DNA of 64,000 nt from Escherichia coli O157 typing phage 14. A model generated the notes under the pieces. That model was given only the letters and a program-made list of their open reading frames with translations, was not told the origin of the DNA and searched no databases. Of the stretch, positions 9,315 to 20,477 are shown piece by piece (within the stretch, counting starts at the first letter, position 1; each line of letters starts with the position of its first letter). The stretch lies in the sequence record KP869112; one strand, 5' to 3'. The position numbers were made by a program, and so were the translations under genes.

Positions 9315-9554
9315 ATGTACAAGTCATTTTCAATTTACTCAAGACAGGCGAAACACTACACAGAGATCCTGATTACTCAGAAAAAATCTGTAGAAGGTGA
9401 GTGGGAATATCACCATAAAATGTTGCGTCCAGATTGGGTTTTTGATAGACTTATTGCCATGATCCCTCTTGGGGAAGTATACCCTCTGACAGGTGGGAGG
9501 GATGCTTGGGATTTAATTGATTACATAGATTCATTTAAGGAGCCCAGTGTATGA
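9315..9554 (+). CDS. hypothetical protein
   Basis: ATG with AAGGGGG RBS; ORF-track start 9288 likely an extension. Confidence 0.45.
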   Translation: MYKSFSIYSRQAKHYTEILITQKKSVEGEWEYHHKMLRPDWVFDRLIAMIPLGEVYPLTGGRDAWDLIDYIDSFKEPSV

Positions 9555-9949
9555 AGATTGAGATCACTAAAGAAGGTAAGAAAGTGTCTGGAGACTATGC
9601 AACAGTAATTCGAGATTTAATGTTTGAAACCACCAAGTTCGGCACATCTAAAGTTGGTCAAACTGTTAGTGTGCAAGGCAATATCACCACAGGGGAGAAG
9701 ATAATCATTGTAATCAAAGGGCAGGATCCTGTGGAAGGAACAGTGGGCCGAGGAGGATACCTGTGCATTTCTGAAGAGCCACGTATGCTGGTGGCTGACC
9801 ACACTACAGGTGGGAAACGTGTGTGCGAGGCGAATGAGGTAATGATTATTCAACCTGTTGATCCAGATGATCCAGCAACTTGGGTGGTAGGAAATGAAAT
9901 CTTCTCCTTAGAAGAGTTATCCTTCCCAGCCCCACGCTCTGTTCAGTAA
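9551..9949 (+). CDS. small acidic protein, MKIEI-type paralog family
   Basis: AAGGAG RBS; N-terminus MKIEIT and acidic C-terminus shared with other family members. Confidence 0.5.
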   Translation: MKIEITKEGKKVSGDYATVIRDLMFETTKFGTSKVGQTVSVQGNITTGEKIIIVIKGQDPVEGTVGRGGYLCISEEPRMLVADHTTGGKRVCEANEVMIIQPVDPDDPATWVVGNEIFSLEELSFPAPRSVQ

Positions 9950-9988
9950 TAATTTATCTTACCATGGACGGTAGAAGCAGGAGGTAGC

Positions 9989-10222
9989 ATGAAAGTTAAA
10001 TTTCTTACAGATTTAGGGTACCCTTCCTTGGTTGACTGCATTGGTAAAATTGTGGAAGCAAAACGGCTATCTGCAAACGATAATGTTGTCATGGTTAAGG
10101 GAAAAGATTTATTAGCTGCAGGTGCAGAGTCTGGCAGGATCTCTCCTGACTATACATATTACTTATCTTTAAGTAATCTACCAGAACGAGGCGGCAAAGG
10201 CCTTGAAGTTGTGGAGGAGTGA
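9989..10222 (+). CDS. small acidic protein, MKVK...EVVEE paralog family
   Basis: GGAGG RBS; MKVKFL N-terminus, ends LEVVEE. Confidence 0.5.
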   Translation: MKVKFLTDLGYPSLVDCIGKIVEAKRLSANDNVVMVKGKDLLAAGAESGRISPDYTYYLSLSNLPERGGKGLEVVEE

Positions 10223-10227
10223 CAGGT

Positions 10228-10764
10228 ATGCTTCTGATTAACTGGGAAGACCTCTATGGGGACAAAGACCCTGTTGCGTTTGTTGATCGTAGATGGAGAT
10301 ACACTGAAGAACAACTGGCTGCAAAAAATTTAACTGCGAAACGCAGAAAGATCATCCAGTGCAAGTACAAATACGCACAATTTGCTGCAAAAGTGTCTCC
10401 ACAAATCGAGAGTTTTGTACTTAAATTGTATGACGAATACCTCAAGTTCAAATTGGATTTTGTACAGGTGTACCGTGCACAGGTACGCCCAGATACCAAC
10501 ATATGTAGATGGAAGGTTGTTTGTGACGGTAAAGATTTGCCGCTCAGCTTGACAATTGAGTGGCGTTATGGGTATCATGAGTGTGGTCTGTATGATATTT
10601 GGGATGTCATTGTAGATCCTGCTAAGTACCTGAACACAGAGGAGCTGGAATATATCAATAAGGTTATTCTCGATATGTTTTTCAGATACACCCGTGAAAA
10701 CTCTGAGAAAGAACGGGATGATTTTCTTGACACCATCAGCAACCATCTGCAGTATACAATTTAA
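10228..10764 (+). CDS. hypothetical protein
   Basis: ATG with GGAGGAG RBS; ORF-track start 10219 is a short extension. Confidence 0.5.
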   Translation: MLLINWEDLYGDKDPVAFVDRRWRYTEEQLAAKNLTAKRRKIIQCKYKYAQFAAKVSPQIESFVLKLYDEYLKFKLDFVQVYRAQVRPDTNICRWKVVCDGKDLPLSLTIEWRYGYHECGLYDIWDVIVDPAKYLNTEELEYINKVILDMFFRYTRENSEKERDDFLDTISNHLQYTI

Positions 10765-10782
10765 CCTACAAAGGGAGGGCTA

Positions 10783-11019
10783 ATGAGTATAAATGTTGTG
10801 CTAATAGGCTACCTGGTAATAGCCGTTATAACAGCGGTATTCTTGACAGGTATATGCATCGTGTCTAGACGAAAGGTGAAGTTTGATGATTTTATCACCA
10901 TCATCACTGCTGCACCTTTTTGGCCTATTGTTATCTTCATCGTAATAATGTGCCTAGTTGATTACTACAAGAATATTCGTAAGGAGAAAAAGGAGAGTAG
11001 GGATGGAGACCGCACCTAA
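10783..11019 (+). CDS. small membrane protein
   Basis: AAGGGAGGG RBS; two hydrophobic helices followed by basic tail. Confidence 0.45.
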   Translation: MSINVVLIGYLVIAVITAVFLTGICIVSRRKVKFDDFITIITAAPFWPIVIFIVIMCLVDYYKNIRKEKKESRDGDRT

Positions 11020-11132
11020 AGCTGTTTATACTGTTCTTAAAGAGATTGCGTTCTACGCAGATCTTAGCCAGGCACCTTTATGGGAAAAGAGCATGTATTT
11101 AAAATGGTGCGTTAATTTAGGGAGACCTTCCA

Positions 11133-11621
11133 GTGTTTCAAGCCATGTTTATTGAGATGCTATCTGGGGTATTGTTACTGGTAGCCATCTTAGGTGGTGC
11201 AGTTCTGATGTATAACTATCTTGAAAAAGGAGAAATTTTAACAAAATCTGGAAAGATAACTTTGATACCTCTTGATAGTAAAGGTAAAGACCCGTCACGA
11301 CTTGTTATAGATGATTACGTTACAGGTGTGACGTTCGAGGTCTCTGTGGAGAGGTTAATACGCAGAGCTGGCGGCCCTTATGACCGAAGAGAGTATGTTT
11401 TCGATTCCGTTACAGAGATGGGGGAGCATCCGTCTTTAATGTTCAGGATGGTAATCAGGGATATGAGGTCATCTATAGATAGGATCGTAAAGGACATTAA
11501 GGAACCTTTTAGGGTAAAAGTTAAGAAGTTTTTTGATTCTAAGATTAACATACTTGCTGTTGTGCTAGGCGTAATTCAACTTCTGTTAATTTTGCACTAT
11601 TTTGAACTGTTGTTTAAGTAG
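11133..11621 (+). CDS. membrane protein
   Basis: GTG start with AGGGAG RBS; N-terminal and C-terminal hydrophobic segments. Confidence 0.45.
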   Translation: MFQAMFIEMLSGVLLLVAILGGAVLMYNYLEKGEILTKSGKITLIPLDSKGKDPSRLVIDDYVTGVTFEVSVERLIRRAGGPYDRREYVFDSVTEMGEHPSLMFRMVIRDMRSSIDRIVKDIKEPFRVKVKKFFDSKINILAVVLGVIQLLLILHYFELLFK

Positions 11622-11681
11622 TGTGCAACAAGGCACAAAGGATGTGCCATAATTAAACAAATTAAGAAAGAGGTAGAGAGA

Positions 11682-12029
11682 ATGTCAAAGATTAAATCGA
11701 TATTAATGTGGGTAGCTGTTGTGGCTTTTGTAGGATACTGGACTTGGGAAACTGAATTAAAAGATATCGGATATACCAGTCTTGAGAGCAAGGCATGCAT
11801 TGGCATAACCGATGCATTCAGGCAAAATGCTATGGATCACGAATGTGTCGATGCAGATATAGATGAGAAACTATCTAAGGACAAGGATTTTTACCATGGT
11901 CATGCCTTGCTTGATAGTGGTGACACTGTAGAATTCTGGTCGTGGTTCCGTGAAGATGGAACAATAAAGACAGCAGTAAAGATTTCCAACAAAGAGTTAA
12001 TGCTGTTGCAGCAGAAGGAGGCTCAATGA
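11682..12029 (+). CDS. hypothetical protein with N-terminal transmembrane segment
   Basis: RBS AAGAAAGAGG; hydrophobic N-terminus. Confidence 0.5.
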   Translation: MSKIKSILMWVAVVAFVGYWTWETELKDIGYTSLESKACIGITDAFRQNAMDHECVDADIDEKLSKDKDFYHGHALLDSGDTVEFWSWFREDGTIKTAVKISNKELMLLQQKEAQ

Positions 12030-12313
12030 TCTGGATATCTTATACTGATGGCACCATGCTGTATACTGCAGGTACCAGATATGAAGTTCAGGAGAACGAT
12101 AAAAAATTTATCGTAAGAACATTTGACAAGGACGACAACCTTTTGCTAGAATTGACTTACAAGGTTGGAGAGGTATCCAATATCCAATTGGATTGTGGTC
12201 ATAAAGATAATCCACTCAAAAAACCTGGAATAGGCAAGGCTTCAGAAGAACGTTTGTCTCGTATTGCAGAAAGCGTTTCTCCCCAAAAATCCAAGAAGAG
12301 GATTAGAAAATGA
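12026..12313 (+). CDS. hypothetical protein
   Basis: ATGA overlap with upstream gene; no motif. Confidence 0.5.
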   Translation: MIWISYTDGTMLYTAGTRYEVQENDKKFIVRTFDKDDNLLLELTYKVGEVSNIQLDCGHKDNPLKKPGIGKASEERLSRIAESVSPQKSKKRIRK

Positions 12314-12510
12314 GTGACAAAATTCTTAAATTTAATACCTACTATGAGAATGATTTGAACGATCTGTATTATATAGTGCGTAGCGAAAACCCAAATGTAG
12401 TTCTGTTTTGCCGAGAACCTTTCAAAAAAGAGGAGATTGAATCTACCATGAATGTGGATCAGATTTCACACCTGCTGCTCCTTGGATCATTAAAAGAGGC
12501 AGTATTCTAA
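12310..12510 (+). CDS. hypothetical protein
   Basis: ATGA overlap with upstream gene; no motif. Confidence 0.45.
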   Translation: MSDKILKFNTYYENDLNDLYYIVRSENPNVVLFCREPFKKEEIESTMNVDQISHLLLLGSLKEAVF

Positions 12511-12529
12511 ACCAGGGTGGAGGGTTTTT

Positions 12530-12715
12530 ATGAAGCATTATTGTCTGTCTGGTAGATTGGGTGCAGATTGTGATTGGGTTTTCTTAAAACTTGTCAGCAT
12601 TCGAGAGTCCATCTCAGAAGAAGAGCAAGAAAGTGAGCTGATGTCATGGATCAACCATTACGGTAACACTTTTCGGCATGTTAAGGTAGAAGAGTTGCCA
12701 AGCGAGGCTGATTGA
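12530..12715 (+). CDS. hypothetical protein
   Basis: RBS GGTGGAGGG; no motif. Confidence 0.4.
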   Translation: MKHYCLSGRLGADCDWVFLKLVSIRESISEEEQESELMSWINHYGNTFRHVKVEELPSEAD

Positions 12716-12717
12716 CT

Positions 12718-12807
12718 ATGATTGCATCAATATTAACGTTTATGGGTGGCGTGGCATTCGGATTCATTGTTTGCCTGTTTATAGTGATTATGTCTATGCG
12801 AGGCTGA
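12718..12807 (+). CDS. small hydrophobic peptide (29 aa)
   Basis: ATG right after upstream stop; single predicted TM helix; below ORF-track cutoff. Confidence 0.3.
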   Translation: MIASILTFMGGVAFGFIVCLFIVIMSMRG

Positions 12808-12810
12808 ATT

Positions 12811-13107
12811 ATGAAACTTTTTGAGTGGTTTAAAAAGTTTAAATATAAAGCTGTAGCCATCGTGCCGTGGTCCATTCAGTGGGTTGATGAAGGTGGTCTA
12901 CCAATACCTGGTGACAAAGATACTGGGTACTGGATTATGATGGAGAACGGGTTTGGAAAGCGAAAGTATACGTGCACAAACTCTACTCGATCTGCGCTTA
13001 ATAGAGTGCCTGGTTACAAACTTATGGTTGTGTGGAAAATGTCAGGCGTGCCTCCAGCTAATGCTCAATTTCTTACTGACAATCCGACCACGGTAGAGGG
13101 AGATTGA
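12811..13107 (+). CDS. hypothetical protein
   Basis: ORF-track ORF in operon-like packing; no motif. Confidence 0.5.
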   Translation: MKLFEWFKKFKYKAVAIVPWSIQWVDEGGLPIPGDKDTGYWIMMENGFGKRKYTCTNSTRSALNRVPGYKLMVVWKMSGVPPANAQFLTDNPTTVEGD

Positions 13108-13391
13108 TAATGAAAAAGATTAACAGTGGTGAAGTTGAGTTTAAACTTGTCGGGAAAGGCACTTACTGGGAAGTTCGTCAAAAGGTATATTTGTTCGGTC
13201 TTATTCCCTATTGGTCTAAATTCTACTGGGGAGCTAACGAGTGGGGAAGATACGCCACCAAATCAATGGCACTTATTGGTATAGCAGAGTACATTGCAGC
13301 CAGAGATAGGGTTGGAGACACTTATTACTATACTGCGGACGATATTCGTAACAGTGTTTACGTCCCACAACCACCTGATGGAGACCGTTGA
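13104..13391 (+). CDS. hypothetical protein
   Basis: Overlapping start/stop; no motif. Confidence 0.5.
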   Translation: MIMKKINSGEVEFKLVGKGTYWEVRQKVYLFGLIPYWSKFYWGANEWGRYATKSMALIGIAEYIAARDRVGDTYYYTADDIRNSVYVPQPPDGDR

Positions 13392-13615
13392 TGAAAGTTA
13401 AAGTTTTAGATTCAAGCTTCTATATTGGTCAGGAGCCTTTAGTAGGAAAAGTGTTTACTGCTGTCCCTAACGAAGATTACCCTGACCTTTTAAAAATAAA
13501 AGGAGCAGATCTTATTGCCGCTGGTGCATCTCAGGAATGCTTTGACAGTCAGTGGACCTACAACTTTGCCCTAGGTGAGGATGTAGAGGTAGTGGAGGAC
13601 GATCATGAAGGTTAA
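13388..13615 (+). CDS. small acidic protein, MKVK paralog family (cassette copy 1, gene a)
   Basis: MKVKVL N-terminus, ends EVVEDD; paralog of 15477-15740. Confidence 0.5.
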   Translation: MMKVKVLDSSFYIGQEPLVGKVFTAVPNEDYPDLLKIKGADLIAAGASQECFDSQWTYNFALGEDVEVVEDDHEG

Positions 13616-13859
13616 AATTCTTGATTCTAACGTCTACTTGGGACAATCCTTCCTGAATGGAAAGGTCGTTCCTGCGGTATACTTTGAAGGGTTGCCGTGG
13701 GATGATCCTGTGCGGCAACATCACAGTTATGTAGGCCACAACGTGGTGTTTATCTTGGGATCAGACCTGATCACCGCTGGTGCACCTGAATATTATTTCG
13801 GGGAAGAGTCCTACTATGCCTTTGGGGTAGGGTCAGATGCAGATATTGTAGAGCTGTGA
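13605..13859 (+). CDS. small acidic protein, MKVK paralog family (cassette copy 1, gene b)
   Basis: MKVKIL N-terminus; AFGVGSDADIVEL tail matches AFVVGSDVEVIEE of 15745-16077. Confidence 0.5.
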   Translation: MKVKILDSNVYLGQSFLNGKVVPAVYFEGLPWDDPVRQHHSYVGHNVVFILGSDLITAGAPEYYFGEESYYAFGVGSDADIVEL

Positions 13860-13871
13860 TGGGTAACCGTT

Positions 13872-14270
13872 GTGAAAAATAAACTGTTTAAAGTTACAAT
13901 GAAAATTCGCGGGGCTTGGAGCGTAAAGCAAGGGCGTATTCCAGAATTTGAGAAAGACTTCTACGTAGTCTCCACCTCGGAGGAGGCTGCATGCTGGCAG
14001 GCTGGCTATGCCTATGCAAGAACCTGGTACGAAGGATACCAGACTGGGGGCTATGACGGAGAAATTATCAGCAAGGGTGTAGAAGAAATTAATGTGTTGA
14101 CAAGTGAAAAAGTTTTTGTTATAGTGCATCCAGATTCCAGAGTGAAGCATTACTGGAATGCCAGAACAAAAACTTGGACACCGTTTGCAGATTCTGCTAC
14201 GCCACTTTTAAACCAGAAAGCTCTTGACTCTGCCCCAAGTTATGGGGTTGTTGAAGAAAAGCTAAACTGA
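13872..14270 (+). CDS. hypothetical protein (cassette copy 1, gene c)
   Basis: HPDSRVKHYWNARTKTWTPF matches HPHSNIAYYWDVLNNEWTPDL of 16077-16472. Confidence 0.5.
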   Translation: MKNKLFKVTMKIRGAWSVKQGRIPEFEKDFYVVSTSEEAACWQAGYAYARTWYEGYQTGGYDGEIISKGVEEINVLTSEKVFVIVHPDSRVKHYWNARTKTWTPFADSATPLLNQKALDSAPSYGVVEEKLN

Positions 14271-14287
14271 AACAGTGAGGTGTCACC

Positions 14288-14578
14288 ATGATGGATTTAA
14301 TTCTAAATATTGATAACGCAGGAGAGTTTAAAGACGAGGGTGTAACAAGCATGGACAAACCCTGCTCTGCTAAGGTTGACTCAAAATGGACCTACAAGTT
14401 TGACGGAGAGATCTTCGCAAATGATGAGAAGGTTGTAGATGCTGCAGCCATTTTAAACGCTCTAGGGTACGACCCTGTGAATTCTTTGATCAAGGATCCT
14501 GTTGAGTTTGCAGAGTATGTTCGAAAAATGGCAGATCTTGCTGTGGATATTTTAAAAACTATCGACAACAAGCTGTAA
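14288..14578 (+). CDS. hypothetical acidic protein
   Basis: RBS GTGAGG; no motif. Confidence 0.5.
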   Translation: MMDLILNIDNAGEFKDEGVTSMDKPCSAKVDSKWTYKFDGEIFANDEKVVDAAAILNALGYDPVNSLIKDPVEFAEYVRKMADLAVDILKTIDNKL

Positions 14579-14584
14579 AAACTG

Positions 14585-14613
14585 TTGACACAACGCTTCA
14601 GATTTAGTATCAT
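14585..14613 (+). promoter_or_regulatory. sigma70-like promoter (TTGACA, 17 nt, TATCAT)
   Basis: Upstream of hpf-like gene. Confidence 0.35.
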
Positions 14614-14660
14614 TGTTTTCAAAGATGGTTTGGTTCCCTCTTCTTTAAAAGGAACACGTT

Positions 14661-14978
14661 ATGCAAATTGAAATCACTGGCAACGTAGAAATCACTGAAG
14701 GTATGGTGTCTTTCATTTCCCACAAAATGTCTAAGCTGGAGCGTTTGCACCCCTCTGCCAACTATGCACGTGTGAGTGTAAAAGTTGAAAATGATCACCA
14801 GGAAGTTATGGCGCTCATTTTTGACAATTCTGGAAAAGAAGTTATTGCCAAGGCTAAAGGTAGTGATGCTTACGAGGCAACTGACCGTATGGTAGATGTT
14901 GCAGCACGTCAGCTGGCTAAATGCGGTGGAAAGAAAGGTAAGGGGAAAGGCAAAGTAAAGATTGACTTTGGAGAATGA
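14661..14978 (+). CDS. hpf: ribosome hibernation promoting factor / RaiA (YfiA) family protein
   Basis: N-terminus MQIEITGNVEITEGM... and ...AYEATDRMVDVAARQLAK closely track bacterial HPF (MQLNITG..VEITEAL ... ARQL); lysine-rich tail. Confidence 0.75.
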   Translation: MQIEITGNVEITEGMVSFISHKMSKLERLHPSANYARVSVKVENDHQEVMALIFDNSGKEVIAKAKGSDAYEATDRMVDVAARQLAKCGGKKGKGKGKVKIDFGE

Positions 14979-15115
14979 GGTGCTACAATGGGCGTGATTA
15001 AGAAACTAGTCCCAAATGTAGAGATTGCATGCTTTGAAATTATGTTTGCAATCGCAGTTGTAGTTAATGTGTTAGGTTACGGCTATTAATATCAAATAAT
15101 TGAGGAGACCTCTAA

Positions 15116-15385
15116 ATGAAAATTAAATTATTCAAAACTGAGCTGGCAGACAAAAACTGTGGACTGGTTGAAGGCATGATTGTCGAAGCACAACCAGTTG
15201 ACTATATGAAGGTGGTTCGTGATGCCCTGGGTGAAGGTTTTGATCTGATGGAGCCAGCTCTGCGAGAAGATGTTATCGAGATGGCTAAAAAGCACACACC
15301 TGAAGGAATGGTGGTGTTTGTTGCACCAGGTAACGGAGAAGAGTTGATTGTAACTCCGGATGTGTATGAGATTGTAGAGGAATAA
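15116..15385 (+). CDS. small acidic protein, MKIK...EIVEE paralog family
   Basis: RBS GAGGAGA; ends YEIVEE. Confidence 0.5.
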   Translation: MKIKLFKTELADKNCGLVEGMIVEAQPVDYMKVVRDALGEGFDLMEPALREDVIEMAKKHTPEGMVVFVAPGNGEELIVTPDVYEIVEE

Positions 15386-15476
15386 TCCTGCTTGGATTAG
15401 CATACTTCCTCGACAAGGAAGGTTTGTAATTATTTGTGGGAAAGGAATCCCAATCTCTTACCATAGGTGATACTAT

Positions 15477-15740
15477 ATGATTGTTTATTTTAAAACTTCA
15501 GGTGGATACCCTGATTCTCAAAGCTTGATCGGAAAAACGTGCACAGCATACTCACCTCTTGATGAGGAGGTAGGCGATATTCTACGAAATATGTATCGGA
15601 TTGATCCCCAAGAAGCCTTTGATCAAAACCTTGTATTTGTCAAGGGCTCAGACATGAAGTCTTTGGGAGCATTCCCTGAAGCAGATGATGATGCCGTTTA
15701 TTCGTTCATGACCCCTTTTGAAGCTATGGTTGTCGGGTGA
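15477..15740 (+). CDS. small acidic protein (cassette copy 2, gene a)
   Basis: Paralog of 13388-13615 (GYP...LIGK..TA...KGSD motifs). Confidence 0.5.
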   Translation: MIVYFKTSGGYPDSQSLIGKTCTAYSPLDEEVGDILRNMYRIDPQEAFDQNLVFVKGSDMKSLGAFPEADDDAVYSFMTPFEAMVVG

Positions 15741-15744
15741 TAAT

Positions 15745-16077
15745 ATGAAAGTACGCTTTATTGGTGAAACAATTCCTGTGCATCTCCGGTCGCCTGAGGA
15801 TTCTGCAGATCTTGCATCTCAGAAAGCGAGAGGCTATGATAAGAAAGTAACCTCAACCGGTGTAGTGCTTGAGGCTACTAGTCTACCTGACCCTGCTGCA
15901 TTCTTTAATCATTATGGGTACTATTTCAGCAATCTTATGAATATCGGTGAGCTTGTGTTTATTAGTGGTGGAGAGATTGTTAGCAAGCTTGGCGGCGATC
16001 CGGATGTCTTTCATGAAACCTGTCCTTTTGCATTTGTGGTAGGTTCAGATGTGGAAGTTATTGAGGAGGTGCGGTAA
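15745..16077 (+). CDS. small acidic protein, MKVR paralog family (cassette copy 2, gene b)
   Basis: ATG with GGGTGA RBS; ends VGSDVEVIEEVR. Confidence 0.5.
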   Translation: MKVRFIGETIPVHLRSPEDSADLASQKARGYDKKVTSTGVVLEATSLPDPAAFFNHYGYYFSNLMNIGELVFISGGEIVSKLGGDPDVFHETCPFAFVVGSDVEVIEEVR

Positions 16078-16472
16078 TGGTAAGCCTATACCGTGTTGAG
16101 TATAGCTCAGATACTGTATACAACGTAAGAAGCAAAGATCGCAGCAACAGAGTGCAAGAAATGTATGTTCTTGCCGACAGTCCGTTATCTGCAGCGTTCA
16201 AGGCAGGGGCTCTTGCATCTCGTTGGAAATTTGAAGGCGGATCTTTCTATGAAGAAACCCTTGAAGATTCTGTTGTTATTTCTTCTGTAGAGGTTTCAGA
16301 TGACTACGAAGGGAAAAAGTTCGTAATGCGGCACCCACACAGCAACATTGCGTACTACTGGGATGTTCTGAACAACGAGTGGACCCCAGATCTTCAGAAG
16401 GCCACTGTGCTAACACCGTTTTTGGCAGATAAGTTCCCACCAGAAGGTAATTTATCCGCACTGTTTCAGTAA
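16077..16472 (+). CDS. hypothetical protein (cassette copy 2, gene c)
   Basis: RBS GAGGAGG; paralog of 13872-14270. Confidence 0.5.
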   Translation: MVSLYRVEYSSDTVYNVRSKDRSNRVQEMYVLADSPLSAAFKAGALASRWKFEGGSFYEETLEDSVVISSVEVSDDYEGKKFVMRHPHSNIAYYWDVLNNEWTPDLQKATVLTPFLADKFPPEGNLSALFQ

Positions 16473-16490
16473 TTTTCTTGCACACAGGTG

Positions 16491-16519
16491 TTGACAACAC
16501 CAACCCTGTGTGAAATAAT
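16491..16519 (+). promoter_or_regulatory. sigma70-like promoter (TTGACA, 17 nt, AATAAT)
   Basis: Upstream of 16552 gene. Confidence 0.4.
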
Positions 16520-16551
16520 ACCTTCATCTTAACAAGACGGGAGACTGATTG

Positions 16552-16809
16552 ATGAAGATTAAACTGAAAAACCTTGAAATGGCAGAGATTCAGGATGGTG
16601 TTGATTTCCGCTCTAAAGATGGTGACATCTTAGAGGTAAATCTTCCAACCTACGAGCTGATTAAAGGTTTTGGCAACGTTCAGGAAGAGGATATTCCAGA
16701 AATTCTTATGATGTTGATTCTTGACGGAACTGTGTTTGTAGGTGAAGGTGAGAACGCTATTGCAATCCCAGGCCATTTTTATGAAGTAGTTGACGAAGAG
16801 GTGCTGTAA
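16552..16809 (+). CDS. small acidic protein, MKIK...EVVDEEVL paralog family
   Basis: RBS GGGAGA. Confidence 0.5.
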   Translation: MKIKLKNLEMAEIQDGVDFRSKDGDILEVNLPTYELIKGFGNVQEEDIPEILMMLILDGTVFVGEGENAIAIPGHFYEVVDEEVL

Positions 16810-17160
16810 ATGAAAGTAGAAATTACTGGTTTTGATGTTAGTGTGGTTCCGGAAGATATTTTAGCTAACTTACCGGAAGGTTTTGGTAACGGTGTTGTGG
16901 TGGATGCTGTTCCTCCTACCAAAGACATTCTGCTGCAGTATGGTGTAGCAGAGGAAGATGTCGATAAAGTTCTTACAATGATGGCAATCGATCGTGTTGT
17001 CGTTGTTAAAGGTCTCGATAATTTTGAGAGTGATCCTCTGATTATTCGCGGAGATGACTACAAAATCATCGATAATGAAGGCCAAGAGTTCTATGAGCCT
17101 TGTGCAGAAGATATTCTTAACTTATTACTGGAAGCAGGCACCGAAGAGGAGGACGAATAA
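16810..17160 (+). CDS. small acidic protein, MKVEI paralog family
   Basis: ATGA-type overlap; very acidic C-terminus. Confidence 0.5.
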   Translation: MKVEITGFDVSVVPEDILANLPEGFGNGVVVDAVPPTKDILLQYGVAEEDVDKVLTMMAIDRVVVVKGLDNFESDPLIIRGDDYKIIDNEGQEFYEPCAEDILNLLLEAGTEEEDE

Positions 17161-17489
17161 TGAAGATTGACCAGTTACTGAAGGCTCGTGCAGAAAAAGC
17201 GTACACCATTAAGCTGACCAACCTGGTTCCTACTTGTCATCCGGATGTAGGTTGGCCCGAAGGTCTGGTAGAGGGAACTGTAACAGCTGCATACCTTCCT
17301 AACATCAAGTACCTTATGGAGATCTTAGAGATGGATGAGGAAACTGCAGAACAGTTCCAGTTAGATATGAAACAGAGTGGGACTCTGGTTATTCACGGGT
17401 GGTATAATACTAAAGATGCAGAAGACCCTCTGGTAACTTCTAATCTGGCATATGAAATCTTAGGGCCTTTGAACCTGGAGGAAGACTAA
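17160..17489 (+). CDS. small acidic protein
   Basis: Overlapping start; no motif. Confidence 0.5.
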   Translation: MKIDQLLKARAEKAYTIKLTNLVPTCHPDVGWPEGLVEGTVTAAYLPNIKYLMEILEMDEETAEQFQLDMKQSGTLVIHGWYNTKDAEDPLVTSNLAYEILGPLNLEED

Positions 17490-17776
17490 TGAAAGATCTG
17501 GTTAAGATTAAGATTAAAGATACCAATGGAGAACTCAGCCATTTTGGAATTAATGATGGTGACGAGCTGATCGCACACCTGCCTACTAAGGAGGTTGTAA
17601 GCAAAGCAGTTGCAGGAGAAGAAGCTGCAATGCAGGCTGCAGGTGTGGATGAAAACTATGTAGCTATGTGCATGTGCCGAGATCAGGTTGTTCTGTATAA
17701 AGCGTATCGACCAAACGGAGCCACGGAGTGGCTTGTATTCCGACCCGAAGGATATGAAATCTTAGAGGCACTATGA
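17489..17776 (+). CDS. small acidic protein
   Basis: Overlapping start; no motif. Confidence 0.5.
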   Translation: MKDLVKIKIKDTNGELSHFGINDGDELIAHLPTKEVVSKAVAGEEAAMQAAGVDENYVAMCMCRDQVVLYKAYRPNGATEWLVFRPEGYEILEAL

Positions 17777-17865
17777 TAAATCTTGCCAAGGTTGCAACGG
17801 CACTGCTAATTATTTGCTGGTCAGTAACCTTAACACTGTGTCTTGTATTTCAGTGAGGTGCTTGT

Positions 17866-18129
17866 ATGAACATCCTGATGTGGGTTATAGCAGTGGCGTT
17901 TGTTGCATGTTTTTGCTGCTGGGTTGCGGTGAGGATTTCTGTAGCTACCCTTCGGAAGTTGGGGTTCTCAGAATGGGATATTAATATCCTTTCTTTTCGC
18001 AATGAAACAATCTCAGCCGCCCTGCTTTGTAAGAAATTCAAGTGGGAACCTTGTGAGGTCATGAGCTATCTAAGAACAGGCGATATCCCTGAAAGATTTA
18101 AAAAAGTTCTTGACGGCAAGGATAAATGA
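17866..18129 (+). CDS. small membrane protein
   Basis: RBS GTGAGG; hydrophobic N-terminal helix. Confidence 0.45.
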   Translation: MNILMWVIAVAFVACFCCWVAVRISVATLRKLGFSEWDINILSFRNETISAALLCKKFKWEPCEVMSYLRTGDIPERFKKVLDGKDK

Positions 18130-18284
18130 CAGTATAGTGACTAACAAGAGGTGAGGAGTGACTGATTTTACTGAAGCTTTAATGATGGCCTTGTCTGTTT
18201 TAGCGCTATCGGTGTGTTTTGGGGCGTTATTCACATCTCTGGTTAAAGTTTTACATACAATATTATTACCCAAGGAGCGCAGTA

Positions 18285-18536
18285 ATGACGAAGATTGACT
18301 TGAATGCTGGCGATCATGTTGTTGTCAAATGCATTGGAGATTATCTTGGATTCACAATCGGCAATACTTACGAGGCGGTAGTGGCGAAGGTTTATCATGA
18401 TAAAGTCCTCAGTCTTGTATTTGACTGCGATGATGATGGGGATGACCGATACGTCTGTGAGGTGCTGGCACGAGACGATAGTGAAGACCAGAAATTTCTG
18501 GTTATTGAACTGAACGGTATTTTTGTAGAACGTTAA
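18285..18536 (+). CDS. hypothetical protein
   Basis: ATG with AAGGAG RBS; ORF-track start 18219 is an extension. Confidence 0.5.
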   Translation: MTKIDLNAGDHVVVKCIGDYLGFTIGNTYEAVVAKVYHDKVLSLVFDCDDDGDDRYVCEVLARDDSEDQKFLVIELNGIFVER

Positions 18537-18564
18537 TTTAAAACAACATAAGGAGACTCTTACT

Positions 18565-18870
18565 ATGGCTAAATCTAAAGTTGAACTGTTCACCTCTCTT
18601 CCTTCTGACACTGCAGAGCGTGATCGCCTTCGCAAAACAATCGAAGAACTGGTGGAACTCCAACTTCAGATTAAAGATCTGAAAGATGCCATTAAGGATA
18701 TCATTCTTGTTGAGAAGCAGGATCATTTGTATTCTCCTAAATTCATCAAATCTCTGGTGGCTACCGAGTTCGATATTCGATATGAGGCTGAAAAACGTCG
18801 AGCTAAAATCGAAGAAGAGGTTGAGCACATGTCTGAGGCAGACATTCTGTTCAAACGCTCTGTAGAATAA
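18565..18870 (+). CDS. hypothetical protein (coiled-coil-like)
   Basis: RBS AAGGAGA. Confidence 0.5.
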   Translation: MAKSKVELFTSLPSDTAERDRLRKTIEELVELQLQIKDLKDAIKDIILVEKQDHLYSPKFIKSLVATEFDIRYEAEKRRAKIEEEVEHMSEADILFKRSVE

Positions 18871-18876
18871 TGACAA

Positions 18877-18905
18877 AGAGGGGGGGCTTAGGCCCCTCTT
18901 TTTAC
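18877..18905 (+). terminator. intrinsic terminator AGAGGGGGGGC-TTAG-GCCCCTCT + TTTTT
   Basis: Strong GC stem plus T run immediately after stop of 18565 gene. Confidence 0.7.
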
Positions 18906-18926
18906 TATCTATGAAGGAGATTTGAG

Positions 18927-19259
18927 ATGGGCATGCCGATCACTGTAAAAGAATTGAATGAACGTGATGCAGGTGGTCTATGGCCTGCACGAAAAATCCG
19001 TTGCATCCGTATGAAAGAGAACCTTGAACATCTTGAGCAACAGAAACGGATTGAGGTTGGTGATATTTTCGAAGTATTTTATTCTGATCGCCGTAACTGG
19101 GAAACCATTCAACCTTCCGGTCTTGTTCTTGCTAAGCTTGACACTGGAGAAGTGATTGTTCCTGGGTTGGATATTGTCTTCGAAATTATCCAGGAGTGGG
19201 ATCCGGACAAGATTAGATACGAAGAGTTATTCGGTAAAGGTATTATCAAACCTGTGTGA
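18927..19259 (+). CDS. hypothetical protein
   Basis: RBS GAAGGAGA. Confidence 0.5.
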   Translation: MGMPITVKELNERDAGGLWPARKIRCIRMKENLEHLEQQKRIEVGDIFEVFYSDRRNWETIQPSGLVLAKLDTGEVIVPGLDIVFEIIQEWDPDKIRYEELFGKGIIKPV

Positions 19260-19267
19260 GGTGGATT

Positions 19268-19567
19268 ATGTCTACAAAGGCGGCTAAATACTCCTACATA
19301 CCATCAACCTCTGCAGAGGTAGACTTTAGTTTCGATGTGTTTCCACTGTTTGAGGTGGTTCTGGCATACCCAACAATACTATCTACTCCTGAGTCACTTG
19401 TGCCTGTTAAGTTGCAGAACGCTATGCATTCTATGCACTACAACAATAAATGTAGGCACAGATGGTGTCAGGACGAGGAAAAAGATCTGGATAGTTTGAG
19501 AGATTTTGACAATCACCTTTTGACACCTTTCAGCTACTCCAACCTTGATAAGCCCTCATGGGTATAG
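19268..19567 (+). CDS. hypothetical protein
   Basis: ATG with GAGGTGG RBS; ORF-track start 19256 is a short extension. Confidence 0.5.
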   Translation: MSTKAAKYSYIPSTSAEVDFSFDVFPLFEVVLAYPTILSTPESLVPVKLQNAMHSMHYNNKCRHRWCQDEEKDLDSLRDFDNHLLTPFSYSNLDKPSWV

Positions 19568-19592
19568 CAAAATATCAAATTTAAGACACCTA

Positions 19593-19620
19593 GGACGCTC
19601 TGTGGCGTCCTTTTCTTTAT
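19593..19620 (+). terminator. intrinsic terminator GGACGC-TCTGTG-GCGTCC + TTTTCTTTAT
   Basis: 6 bp stem and T-rich tail after 19268 gene. Confidence 0.65.
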
Positions 19621-19780
19621 CTGGTGCACGATTGCATACCTTTGACAGATAATCTCATTACAGAGCGTTTAAGAGCTTCCTACAAACAAATCTCTCTTTC
19701 GAGCGTAGCGAGAACGCACGTCCGTTTTGACCCAAATCACCATACGCTCGGATTTTAACCAAACCCTCGCGGCGTTTCTA

Positions 19781-19809
19781 TTGACACATTACCGCTCCAG
19801 TGATAATAT
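19781..19809 (+). promoter_or_regulatory. sigma70-like promoter (TTGACA, 17 nt, TAATAT)
   Basis: Upstream of small peptide gene at 19842. Confidence 0.5.
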
Positions 19810-19841
19810 CCACACATAGTTTGTAGAATATGGGGTACACT

Positions 19842-19931
19842 ATGAGAACATTGTCCGAAGTTTTGGTGGTGATCCTGATGATCATTACGTCCATAGCGGC
19901 TGTTGCCGGAATACTCACGGGTGGAACATGA
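19842..19931 (+). CDS. small hydrophobic peptide (29 aa)
   Basis: ATG 33 nt downstream of promoter -10; single TM helix; stop overlaps next ATG. Confidence 0.35.
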   Translation: MRTLSEVLVVILMIITSIAAVAGILTGGT

Positions 19932-20140
19932 TAAACACACATGCATCTGAAGAGACATCCAAAGGAGTGACTATATGTCCCTTGGCTGAGCCAGTGAAAG
20001 AGGAAAACTTCGATTCTGAAGATTCTCCATCTTCGCTCCAGGTAGATCCTGAGGCTGATGACCTAACGTGGGAAGACATCGTAGATATCTGGTTCTCTAT
20101 TATGCCTGAGCACGAAGAGTTCAGGGGTGGTAGACTATGA
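19928..20140 (+). CDS. small acidic protein
   Basis: ATGA overlap with upstream peptide gene. Confidence 0.4.
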   Translation: MINTHASEETSKGVTICPLAEPVKEENFDSEDSPSSLQVDPEADDLTWEDIVDIWFSIMPEHEEFRGGRL

Positions 20141-20261
20141 AGCACCGAGCCCACACAGGTTCCTCATGCTAAAGCATGGCCTGAAGAGGCAAACGTGCAT
20201 AATTCCTGTACATTGGGACGTATAAAACCCTGTTCACATTCTCATTTCCAGAGGAGATTTC

Positions 20262-20477
20262 ATGAAGATAGAAATATTTGGTGGAGCTGACAATACTCGT
20301 GGCCTGATTTACCTTGAATTCGATGAATCATACCTGCCAGAGGTGTTAAATATGGACTCTGTTGCTGATGCTTTGGGAGTAAGTCCTAAAGATCTCTACT
20401 CTGGTGCTGAGATTGATGGTTGGGAGGAGACCATGAACATTGATTTCAGTGAAGTAGGTGATGAACCACTGGACTGA
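20262..20477 (+). CDS. small acidic protein, MKIEI paralog family
   Basis: RBS GAGGAGA; MKIEIFGG N-terminus. Confidence 0.5.
   Translation: MKIEIFGGADNTRGLIYLEFDESYLPEVLNMDSVADALGVSPKDLYSGAEIDGWEETMNIDFSEVGDEPLD

Follow-up and report, generated by a model that had tools for sequence, protein, structure and literature searches.

Small proteins from the non-structural region of a coliphage related to rV5: three ancient paralogous families, two with predicted SH3-like barrels

Among the commonest coliphages are the vequintaviruses, which are also candidate therapeutic phages; about a third of their genes are without known function. The window analyzed here, a 64,000-nucleotide stretch of the genome of Escherichia coli O157 typing phage 14 (KP869112), is from a Vequintavirus (an rV5-like coliphage) and is 97.8% identical to phage FFH2. 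The block under study, in the rightward and tightly packed non-structural arm, corresponds to rV5 ORF126-163, which in the scheme of the rV5 authors lies distally in a long unit, genes 82-163. A first-pass annotation had described there at least 12 amplified small acidic proteins with similar ends and a duplicated three-gene unit, noting that such arrays often reflect arms-race diversification of host-takeover or anti-defense factors. Its coordinates and quoted peptides are correct. The questions are whether these proteins are related beyond composition bias, how old the relationship is, and what role they may have.

All-against-all Smith-Waterman scores were compared with 300 shuffles (561 pairs, Bonferroni threshold of 8.9e-5). 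The z values are 23 for 13388 and 13605, 16 for 13872 and 16077, 14 for 9989 and 13388, 8.8 for 13605 and 15718, and 7.9 for 16549 and 16810, where 13388, 15718, and 16549 are the ORF starts of the genes beginning at 13391, 15745, and 16552 (Table 1). When HMM searches are iterated over the full set of 463 six-frame ORFs in the window, five A and two B members are gathered, 15477 being found at E = 1.2e-6 in round 1. With leave-one-out HMMs, each of the five A and five C genes ranks first (E = 3.6e-20 to 3.5e-4), and the E value of the next best ORF is at least 0.055. PHROGs independently groups 9989, 13388, and 13605 as phrog_5009 and 13872 and 16077 as phrog_7379. The similarity thus exceeds composition bias. 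Judging from these comparisons, the twelve small genes are not one family but three ancient paralogous families: A (9989, 13391, 13605, 15477, and 15745), B (13872 and 16077), and C (15116, 16552, 16810, 17160, and 17489). Sequence does not establish that A and C are homologous (hhalign, 14%).

The picture of at least 12 amplified small acidic proteins is confirmed: these are genuine genes, amplified and for the most part acidic, although they fall into three families and B1 has a pI of 7.8. The pI is 4.0-4.8 in most A and C members, which are as strongly acidic as Ocr/ArdA-type mimics should be, and 5.4 in 9989. The N-terminal motif M[KQ][IV][KERD][IVLF] is enriched in the block (9/31 genes versus 2/92 elsewhere, Fisher p = 6e-5), but genes outside the families carry it too: 14661, the unrelated RaiA/HPF gene, and 9551 and 20262, neither of which has a family match.

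Table 1. Positions of the family genes and neighboring features in the window.
Feature	Coordinates	Strand	Evidence or remark
Family A member 1, 77 aa, pI 5.4	9989..10222	+	phrog_5009; leave-one-out E = 1.6e-10; dN/dS 0.10
Family A member 2, 74 aa from ATG	13391..13615	+	ORF opens at TTG 13388
30-nt patch, 80% identical to 13758-13787	13502..13531	+	repeat comparison
Family A member 3, 84 aa	13605..13859	+	z = 23 vs 13388; leave-one-out E = 3.6e-20; dN/dS 0.19
Family B member 1 (B1), 132 aa, pI 7.8	13872..14270	+	z = 16 vs 16077; phrog_7379; dN/dS 0.05
Near-consensus sigma-70 promoter, 11/12 positions	14585..14613	+	promoter match; annotated as P144 in rV5
RaiA/HPF (ribosome hibernation factor) homologue	14661..14978	+	PF02482, E = 8.8e-13; existing annotation
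Family C member 1, 89 aa	15116..15385	+	leave-one-out rank 1, E = 3.5e-4; alignment; dN/dS 0.05
Family A member 4, 87 aa	15477..15740	+	leave-one-out E = 5.2e-6; phrog_5009 E = 1.2e-4; dN/dS 0.08
Family A member 5, 110 aa from ATG 15745	15745..16077	+	z = 8.8 vs 13605; leave-one-out E = 1.5e-5; dN/dS 0.08
Family B member 2 (B2), 131 aa, pI 4.9	16077..16472	+	z = 16 vs 13872; phrog_7379; dN/dS 0.07
Near-consensus sigma-70 promoter, 11/12, extended -10	16491..16519	+	promoter match; annotated as P150 in rV5
Family C member 2, 85 aa from ATG	16552..16809	+	listed also by ORF start 16549
Family C member 3, 116 aa, pI 4.05	16810..17160	+	z = 7.9 vs 16549; leave-one-out E = 5.2e-9; dN/dS 0.18
Family C member 4, 109 aa	17160..17489	+	leave-one-out E = 4.9e-6; dN/dS 0.07
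Family C member 5, 95 aa	17489..17776	+	leave-one-out E = 5.4e-6; dN/dS 0.06

The main PHROGs matches of the window proteins have E values of 1e-32 to 1e-76, and every matched family is listed as of unknown function. Family A matches phrog_5009, 13367, 7345, and 8603 (9989, 13388, and 13605 match phrog_5009 at 6e-36 to 4e-32, and 15477 matches it weakly), family B matches phrog_7379 (13872 at 4e-74 and 16077 at 6e-66), and the three scanned C genes match three singleton families, phrog_11868, 12359, and 12155. PHROGs splits family A into three families and has no record of A and C as five-member families, of a predicted fold, or of the cassettes. No Pfam match is found at E up to 0.1 for the five A proteins, both B proteins, the C proteins 15116, 16549, and 16810, or 12 remote A relatives, and the family proteins have no match among PDB sequences. 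The remote relatives of family A again form tandem arrays, in a T7-like module (L017) and in siphovirus mEp554, within small-ORF non-structural regions of unrelated phages. They fall in phrog_5009 and phrog_13367 and bridge the two.

The gene order A-A-B occurs twice, at 13388-14270 (cassette 1; 13391, 13605, and 13872) and 15477-16472 (cassette 2; 15477, 15745, and 16077). The B proteins are 28% identical over their full length. The A genes of different cassettes are only 27-31% identical, no closer than any other A pair, their one-to-one pairing is not recovered by a bootstrapped tree, and no DNA-level repeat of the duplication survives. A short likeness in DNA is found within cassette 1, where the 30-nt patch encodes the peptide G-x-D-L-I-x-A-G-A. 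In natural 13388/13605 hybrid genes (P0005 and P0010), the alignment places the crossover within this peptide. Such hybrids occur in a few metagenome assemblies only and in 0/117 isolate genomes.

The genes of cassette 1 overlap by 11 nt (13391 and 13605). In cassette 2, the start codon of 16077 overlaps the preceding stop codon by 1 nt, and the start of 15745 agrees with rV5 gp143, whereas the mechanical ORF begins at 15718. The RaiA/HPF gene sits between the cassettes and is no family member despite its N-terminus, MQIEITG. Solitary 15116 lies directly upstream of cassette 2, and 16552 heads a four-gene tandem C array, in which 16810 carries an additional acidic C-terminal extension; in the rV5 reference, two 1-nt insertions break the counterpart of 17489 into two parts. 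Junctions between the genes overlap or abut. Six sigma-70-like promoters matching 11/12 positions are found on the coding strand, and two of them are also annotated in rV5; one occupies the intergenic gap upstream of the RaiA gene and cassette 2, and the other lies in the gap upstream of the C array.

Structure prediction was carried out for one representative each of families A (13391) and C (16552), the latter model being built on an alignment that assumes homology of the five C genes. Both AlphaFold models (pLDDT 92.5 and 89.6, respectively) are five-stranded barrels with the SH3-type strand order, that is, SH3-like small β-barrels. The common MKVK/MKIK N-terminus and EVVEE tail are thereby explained as the N-terminal and C-terminal strands, A and C both being predicted barrels of this type. 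Paralogues differ mostly by loop inserts, chiefly between strands 2 and 3: 13605 and 15477 have an insert there, 15745 has a long one after strand 1, and 9989 is a short form lacking any loop insert, its nearest relatives lying outside the genus (P0095 and P0100). A Foldseek search of the C model against viral models does not retrieve A. In view of this result and the missing sequence link, the fold likeness of the two models could be convergent.

The duplications are ancient, as shown by the 27-46% amino acid identity among A paralogues, the lack of DNA repeats, and deep 1:1 orthologues. All five A paralogues, all five C paralogues, and B2 have positional 1:1 orthologues in a divergent lineage (L010) with 29-74% amino acid identity (40% for 16077), and the orthologue pairs have 97-100% bootstrap. 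Only 13872 is missing from this lineage. In 115/122 phage records the whole block is present, with 90-98% nucleotide identity. One natural deletion is found, that of cassette 1, including 13872, in phage Bas59. All twelve genes are truly coding and under purifying selection: against nine relatives, the gene-wide dN/dS is 0.05-0.20, which is the range of ClpP (0.05) and the methyltransferase (0.03). The most variable A gene, 13605, has 76-79% nucleotide identity in four relatives, yet its dN/dS is 0.19.

We give a probability of roughly 0.5 to the reading that these ancient duplicates became conserved, sigma-70-transcribed accessory protein-binding modules, the A and C proteins being SH3-like barrels. 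The five A and five C proteins would be stand-alone, mostly acidic barrels of 75-116 residues, with the MKVK/MKIK N-terminus as the first strand and the E-V-V-E-E tail as the last. The two B genes (about 131 residues) would have been duplicated together with two A genes, giving A-A-B twice, and after these old duplications each copy may have taken its own conserved role by subfunctionalization. The packed genes are probably coupled in translation. Because they lie behind host-type sigma-70 promoters, they are probably expressed by host RNA polymerase, perhaps before or alongside the replication genes. Each barrel may dock on a different host or phage protein and tune that protein while infection proceeds; the putative binding face would include two tyrosines, one invariant in a loop and one in strand 4, together with the G-x-D-L-I-x-A-G-A turn. 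These functions would be accessory and dispensable in laboratory culture. Cassette 1 is dispensable in a permissive host, since Bas59 is a natural deletion that plates normally on K-12 and every tested strain, and this fits an accessory host-interaction class.

A role as anti-defense factors, each paralogue neutralizing a different defense system and an arms race with host immunity driving their amplification and diversification, is possible but unlikely. The small size, acidity, and accessory character of these non-structural genes, a cassette that can be lost, hybrids indicating that recombination can remodel the array, and the deep paralogue divergence expected after old specialization are all consistent with it. 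However, raised dN/dS between close relatives is seen in no member, copy number is almost invariant (one deletion, and no hybrids among the isolates), and 1:1 orthologues are kept across deep divergence. Vequintavirinae are moreover described as exceptionally susceptible to restriction-modification (PMC8594841), and the group is blocked by Druantia III and ARMADA II. Bas59 plates like Bas57 and Bas58 on six restriction-modification and five abortive-infection systems and equals Bas58 on EcoKI and EcoCFT_I, with its remaining paralogues still present; protection of the Ocr/ArdA type against type I systems is not seen. The dN/dS, synteny, and plating comparisons do not support ongoing arms-race diversification. 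What agrees with the first interpretation is the amplified, mostly acidic, non-structural block with its sigma-70 promoters and dispensable cassette 1, and an anti-defense role against systems other than these eleven is possible.

A wider and rather doubtful version of the module reading unites families A and C with the relatives found in T7-like phages, siphoviruses, and gut metagenomes. They would make up one large, unrecognized superfamily of stand-alone SH3-like effectors, repeatedly amplified in tandem, each paralogue docking on a different host machine. If so, the paralogues might act jointly with the phage-encoded ribosome hibernation factor, and their targets might include those transcription or translation factors whose normal partners are barrels of the KOW or L24 type.

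The C gene 17160, equivalent to rV5 ORF152, should be noted for its weak virion mass-spectrometry evidence, which counts against our best explanation. We regard as improbable that the proteins, instead of acting as intracellular effectors, belong to the virion (associated with it or ejected from its interior) or are small helpers in assembly. Table S3 of the rV5 paper flags ORF133, ORF137, and ORF152 as structural from mass spectrometry, and gp133 is named there among the predominant proteins of trypsin-digested virions. However, only 1/12 family genes is flagged, the two ORF152 peptides are poor (XCorr about 1.8-1.9, one non-tryptic), the morphogenesis module is distant from these genes, which have sigma-70 promoters ahead of them, and remote relatives occur among replication and recombination genes.

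Acidic nucleic acid mimics of the Ocr, ArdA, Ugi, or Arn type, blocking host enzymes that bind DNA or RNA, are also a long shot. The resemblance to KOW and L24 barrels would make the transcription or translation apparatus a possible target, alongside the phage HPF.

It is very improbable that the likeness is an artifact of composition and gene packing (a lysine at codon 2 that favors initiation, and Glu/Val tail codons serving also as the ribosome-binding site of the gene that follows) without homology: the downstream Shine-Dalgarno sequence does lie within the acidic tail codons in six of the ten A/C genes and RaiA/HPF shares the N-terminal motif, but as a full explanation it is refuted by full-length similarity above the shuffles, the HMM iteration, and the leave-one-out HMMs that pick out each A/C member, and 15116 and 17489 retain the tail although the next gene is about 90 nt away. 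Packing can explain part of the A-C tail likeness, not the families.

The finding of these families is real but modest, and unless a target comes to light it is chiefly of descriptive significance. Grouping twelve function-unknown genes into three families offers entry points for testing: a fold predicted with confidence for ten genes, motifs conserved on the surface, and a mutant in which cassette 1 is naturally deleted. The predicted fold is that of SH3, KOW, and PsaE barrels. The window proteins share no sequence similarity with these, match neither an SH3 nor a KOW profile of Pfam, and are stand-alone and acidic, with the family-specific G-x-D-L-I-x-A-G-A turn and loop inserts. The 26-gene host-takeover module of SPO1 is likewise a run of small non-structural genes, many of unknown function (PMC6873191), and Gp2 and Gp5.7 of T7 are likewise encoded by small genes in a non-structural region (bioRxiv 10.1101/262279). 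Such clusters have no homology to the rV5 genes, and many of the genes studied here are paralogous to one another. Ocr and ArdA are also small and strongly acidic. They are elongated and largely helical, whereas a β-barrel is predicted here; vequintaviruses are, moreover, restriction-sensitive, and loss of cassette 1 has no effect on the six restriction-modification systems. In large DNA viruses, small accessory genes likewise form tandem arrays of paralogues, as multigene families and "genomic accordions." In contrast to these, the window array is old and frozen under purifying selection, with no recent copy-number change and no raised dN/dS. It shows that an array of accessory paralogues in a phage need not indicate an arms race in progress.

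By sequence comparison, twelve genes of the block belong to three families: A (9989, 13388, 13605, 15477, and 15718, named by gene start), B (13872 and 16077, called B1 and B2), and C (15116, 16549, 16810, 17160, and 17489). The order A-A-B occurs twice, in cassette 1 (13388–14270) and cassette 2 (15477–16472). The first-pass annotation had described amplified families of small acidic proteins with a doubled three-gene unit at these coordinates. The doubling is as described, and the families are borne out and refined to three by shuffle-controlled pairs, HMM iteration, and leave-one-out HMMs. In the all-against-all comparison of 34 plus-strand proteins, each pair was scored against 300 shuffles of one partner, with a Bonferroni threshold over 561 pairs. 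Shuffling keeps composition fixed, so that the comparison addresses composition bias, which the annotation itself had named as the point against its claim. Six within-family pairs exceed shuffled composition at this threshold (table), and the B peptides quoted as similar do align. The pair of the methyltransferase 8466 with 16549 (z = 7.7) also passes; its sole support is a 51-residue BLASTP alignment, and it was treated as chance.

Within-family protein pairs passing the Bonferroni threshold, and the gene lying between the two cassettes
Feature	Position in window	Setting	Evidence
Protein pair	13388 and 13605	family A	z = 23
Protein pair	13872 and 16077	family B	z = 16
Protein pair	9989 and 13388	family A	z = 14
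Protein pair	13605 and 15718	family A	z = 8.8
Protein pair	16549 and 16810	family C	z = 7.9
Protein pair	13388 and 15718	family A	z = 7.7
RaiA/HPF ribosome hibernation factor homologue	14661–14978	between the two cassettes	PF02482, E = 8.8e-13

When HMMs are iterated over the 463 six-frame ORFs in the window, families A (9989, 13388, 13605, 15477, and 15718, with its ATG at 15745) and B (13872 and 16077) emerge, with no false match below E = 0.03. Family C was initially firm for 16549 and 16810 only. In the leave-one-paralogue-out HMMs for C, the training of which included orthologues from a divergent lineage, 15116, 16549, 16810, 17160, and 17489 are each the top non-training ORF (E = 4e-9 to 3.5e-4; next, at least 0.14), and the test likewise holds for all five A genes. 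PHROGs independently places 9989, 13388, and 13605 in one group and 13872 and 16077 in another. The candidates 9551, 20262, 14288, and 10219 are not significant as extra members. The 14288–14578 protein contains DSKWTYKF, comparable to the family A motif DSQWTYNF (a 27-nt patch, 78% identical), and its C-terminal half weakly resembles that of the 10219–10764 protein (z = 6.3; hhalign, 27%); this likeness may be fortuitous or the trace of another repeat unit. Pfam gives no match for the scanned members, 12 remote relatives, or most context genes, the PDB sequence search gives none for B or C, and B likewise lacks any remote match. ORF142 is noted in rV5 as similar to a Listeria phage A118 protein; at E up to 0.01, its matches are confined to Vequintavirus.

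Structure prediction of representatives gives confident models for A and C, and the two families are predicted to share an SH3-like fold. The 13388 protein, modelled by AlphaFold2 with a 34-sequence family alignment (pLDDT 92.5, pTM 0.80), consists of five strands and a single short helix. In the model of the 16549 protein (family C alignment; pLDDT 89.6), the five strands follow the same order, and two helices are inserted between strands 2 and 3. The inserts of 13605 and 15477 lie in this loop too, as does part of the 15745 insert. In both models, strand 1 is the MKVK/MKIK N terminus and strand 5 is the E-V-V-E-E tail, which explains why the termini looked alike across families in the first-pass annotation. 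The N-terminal motif is indeed enriched (9/31 genes in the block versus 2/92, p = 6e-5), but it also catches the unrelated HPF gene and 9551 and 20262, which have no family match. The likeness of the acidic tails is retained as strand 5, though part of it is owed to the Shine-Dalgarno sequence of the next gene. In six of the ten A and C genes, the Glu/Val tail codons (GAG GTN GTG GAG GA...) hold that of the abutting downstream gene (junctions 13391–13615, 15745–16077, and 16552–17489). Such tails are thus under a dual constraint, which may help to keep them alike.

A single superfamily comprising A and C is plausible. In sequence, hhalign gives 14% for A versus C and 4% when the remote A group is set against C, over the first two strands only, and the leave-one-out HMMs give no cross-family matches. 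A Foldseek search of viral predicted structures with the C model retrieves a single C-like protein, from Vibrio phage Vc1, and no member of A.

The duplications are ancient. DNA repeats in the window do not exceed about 30 nt, the A paralogues share 27–46% identity, and B1 shares 28% with B2. The divergent lineage (L010–L012, contigs of 39–126 kb) has the same gene order, with orthologues 29–95% identical, and one positional orthologue for each gene of families A and C as well as for B2; in L010, an unrelated 96-aa ORF occupies the position of B1. L010 also has an extra 98-aa gene (16859–17155) between B2 and the C array, which matches Phage_P22_Y8K6 (PF27050). In a bootstrapped tree, the orthologue pairs of the window and the divergent lineage have 97–100% support, while the deep nodes have at most 53%, so that the A genes cannot be paired one to one across the cassettes. 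En-bloc duplication of the cassette would be consistent with the order of the genes and with the B pair; for the A genes, it is indistinguishable from separate tandem duplications or gene conversion between neighbours.

The arms-race diversification proposed in the first-pass annotation finds no support in dN/dS, synteny, or the phenotypes of phage Bas59 EduardKellenberger. Gene-wide dN/dS against nine relatives is 0.05–0.20 in all twelve genes (ClpP, 0.05; methyltransferase, 0.03), and of 122 phage records, 115 have the block in full, at 90–98% nucleotide identity. Changes in copy number are infrequent. In a single isolate, Bas59, an in-frame deletion has taken out 3,560 bp (window 10625–14184) at a 15-nt microhomology (L003, the Bas59 record, 2563–2577; window 10610–10624 and 14185–14199). 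Eleven genes, cassette 1 and eight others, are gone, and the 10219 protein is fused to B1's final ~30 residues. In the BASEL raw data, this natural experiment on cassette 1 loss has no phenotype in the assays: Bas59 plates as Bas57 and Bas58 do on six restriction-modification and five abortive-infection systems, and the lysis host range is likewise unchanged. Under laboratory conditions the phage can thus do without cassette 1; roles against other defence systems, or redundancy with cassette 2, are possible. A 13388/13605 hybrid is found in a few metagenome assemblies and in no isolate genome; its crossover lies within the G-x-D-L-I-x-A-G-A stretch, encoded by the sole 80%-identical patch. Compared with the window, Bas48, and YP-6, rV5 has single-base insertions at two points (L001, the rV5 record, 10701–10990; window 17489–17776), which split the family C gene 17489 into annotated gp148 and gp149, by either sequencing error or genuine disruption.

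The window is Vequintavirus, and the 10.9-kb region is 97.8% identical to Escherichia phage FFH2 and 96.6% to rV5 over its full length. The rV5 equivalent, ORF126–163, is annotated as hypothetical throughout except for the RaiA/HPF homologue and a putative transcriptional regulator. The rV5 genome paper assigns these genes to the distal part of a transcription unit spanning genes 82–163 and makes no mention of paralogues or duplication. The context is non-structural, and no tRNA is found in the window. The coding strand has six sigma-70-like promoters (11/12), of which two are also annotated in rV5, and the A and C genes are tightly coupled at their junctions. The RaiA/HPF gene is under purifying selection (dN/dS 0.08), and relatives already carry the annotation. 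Constraint in the block is strongest in the genes 18285–18536 and 18565–18870 (dN/dS 0.01); one encodes an 83-aa protein of unassigned function and the other phrog_639, 'transcriptional regulator', with a terminator-like hairpin (18880–18897) on its 3′ side that is annotated in rV5 as a Rho-independent terminator.

Three adjacent genes (12310–12510 and 12811–13391) form the most divergent part of the block among close relatives, with 68–77% nucleotide identity in several genomes and dS up to 1.6. Yet they have 80–95% amino-acid identity to the otherwise more distant L010, which suggests mosaic exchange of this segment. The window also lacks 257 bp present in rV5 (L001 4185–4440; junction near window 11220–11233), which joins the N terminus of a small membrane ORF (phrog_15251) to the homologue of rV5 ORF133 (window 11133–11621), a product reported as predominant in virions. 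The best 25 relatives each align in at least two pieces, consistent with a deletion specific to this phage; the break itself is mapped against rV5 alone. Eighteen MG0656xx records labelled 'Campylobacter phage' with host C. jejuni share 94–97% identity with this E. coli Vequintavirus throughout the region, and these host labels are probably wrong.

Index-based searches place A, B, and C matches mostly on phage-genome-sized contigs and in E. coli assemblies, and tblastn against 50,697 phage records finds B1 and 13605 in the genus only. An exhaustive HMM search with family A gives 46 matches among 1.84 billion representatives. By our count, about 30 are full-length (63–87 aa), with the motif MKVKLLNDGGY...VGKVV.A...I.G.DLI.AGA...Y.F..G.E.EVIEE. 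The large proteins P0105, P0107, P0134, and P0136 were rejected as spurious, being repetitive and having unrelated or no Pfam content. The remote relatives belong to phrog_5009, 13367, and 7345, and to no Pfam family. They occur in the siphoviruses mEp554 and mEp010, within a small-ORF run between recombination and lysis genes, in a gut-metagenome lineage (125–140-kb contigs), and in viral contigs. One such contig, with a T7-like replication module judged by ORF inspection, has five A-like ORFs in two tandem runs on either side of the DNA polymerase gene. With A-like tandem arrays in this contig and in siphovirus mEp554, tandem amplification is a recurrent habit of family A.

No functional or transcriptomic study of the A, B, and C genes was found in the literature; ORF152 (17160) is flagged as virion-associated in rV5 Table S3, on two weak peptides. 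Of the host-takeover or anti-defence roles first proposed, a class of accessory host-interaction factors is our best guess, whereas an anti-restriction mimic is argued against by the unchanged behaviour of Bas59 in the BASEL assays and the exceptional susceptibility to restriction-modification described for Vequintavirinae (PMC8594841). We infer with moderate confidence that the products would be small, subfunctionalised protein-binding barrels expressed from host-type promoters. The array is an uncharacterised case of a familiar kind, the paralogous small-ORF clusters in phage non-structural regions.
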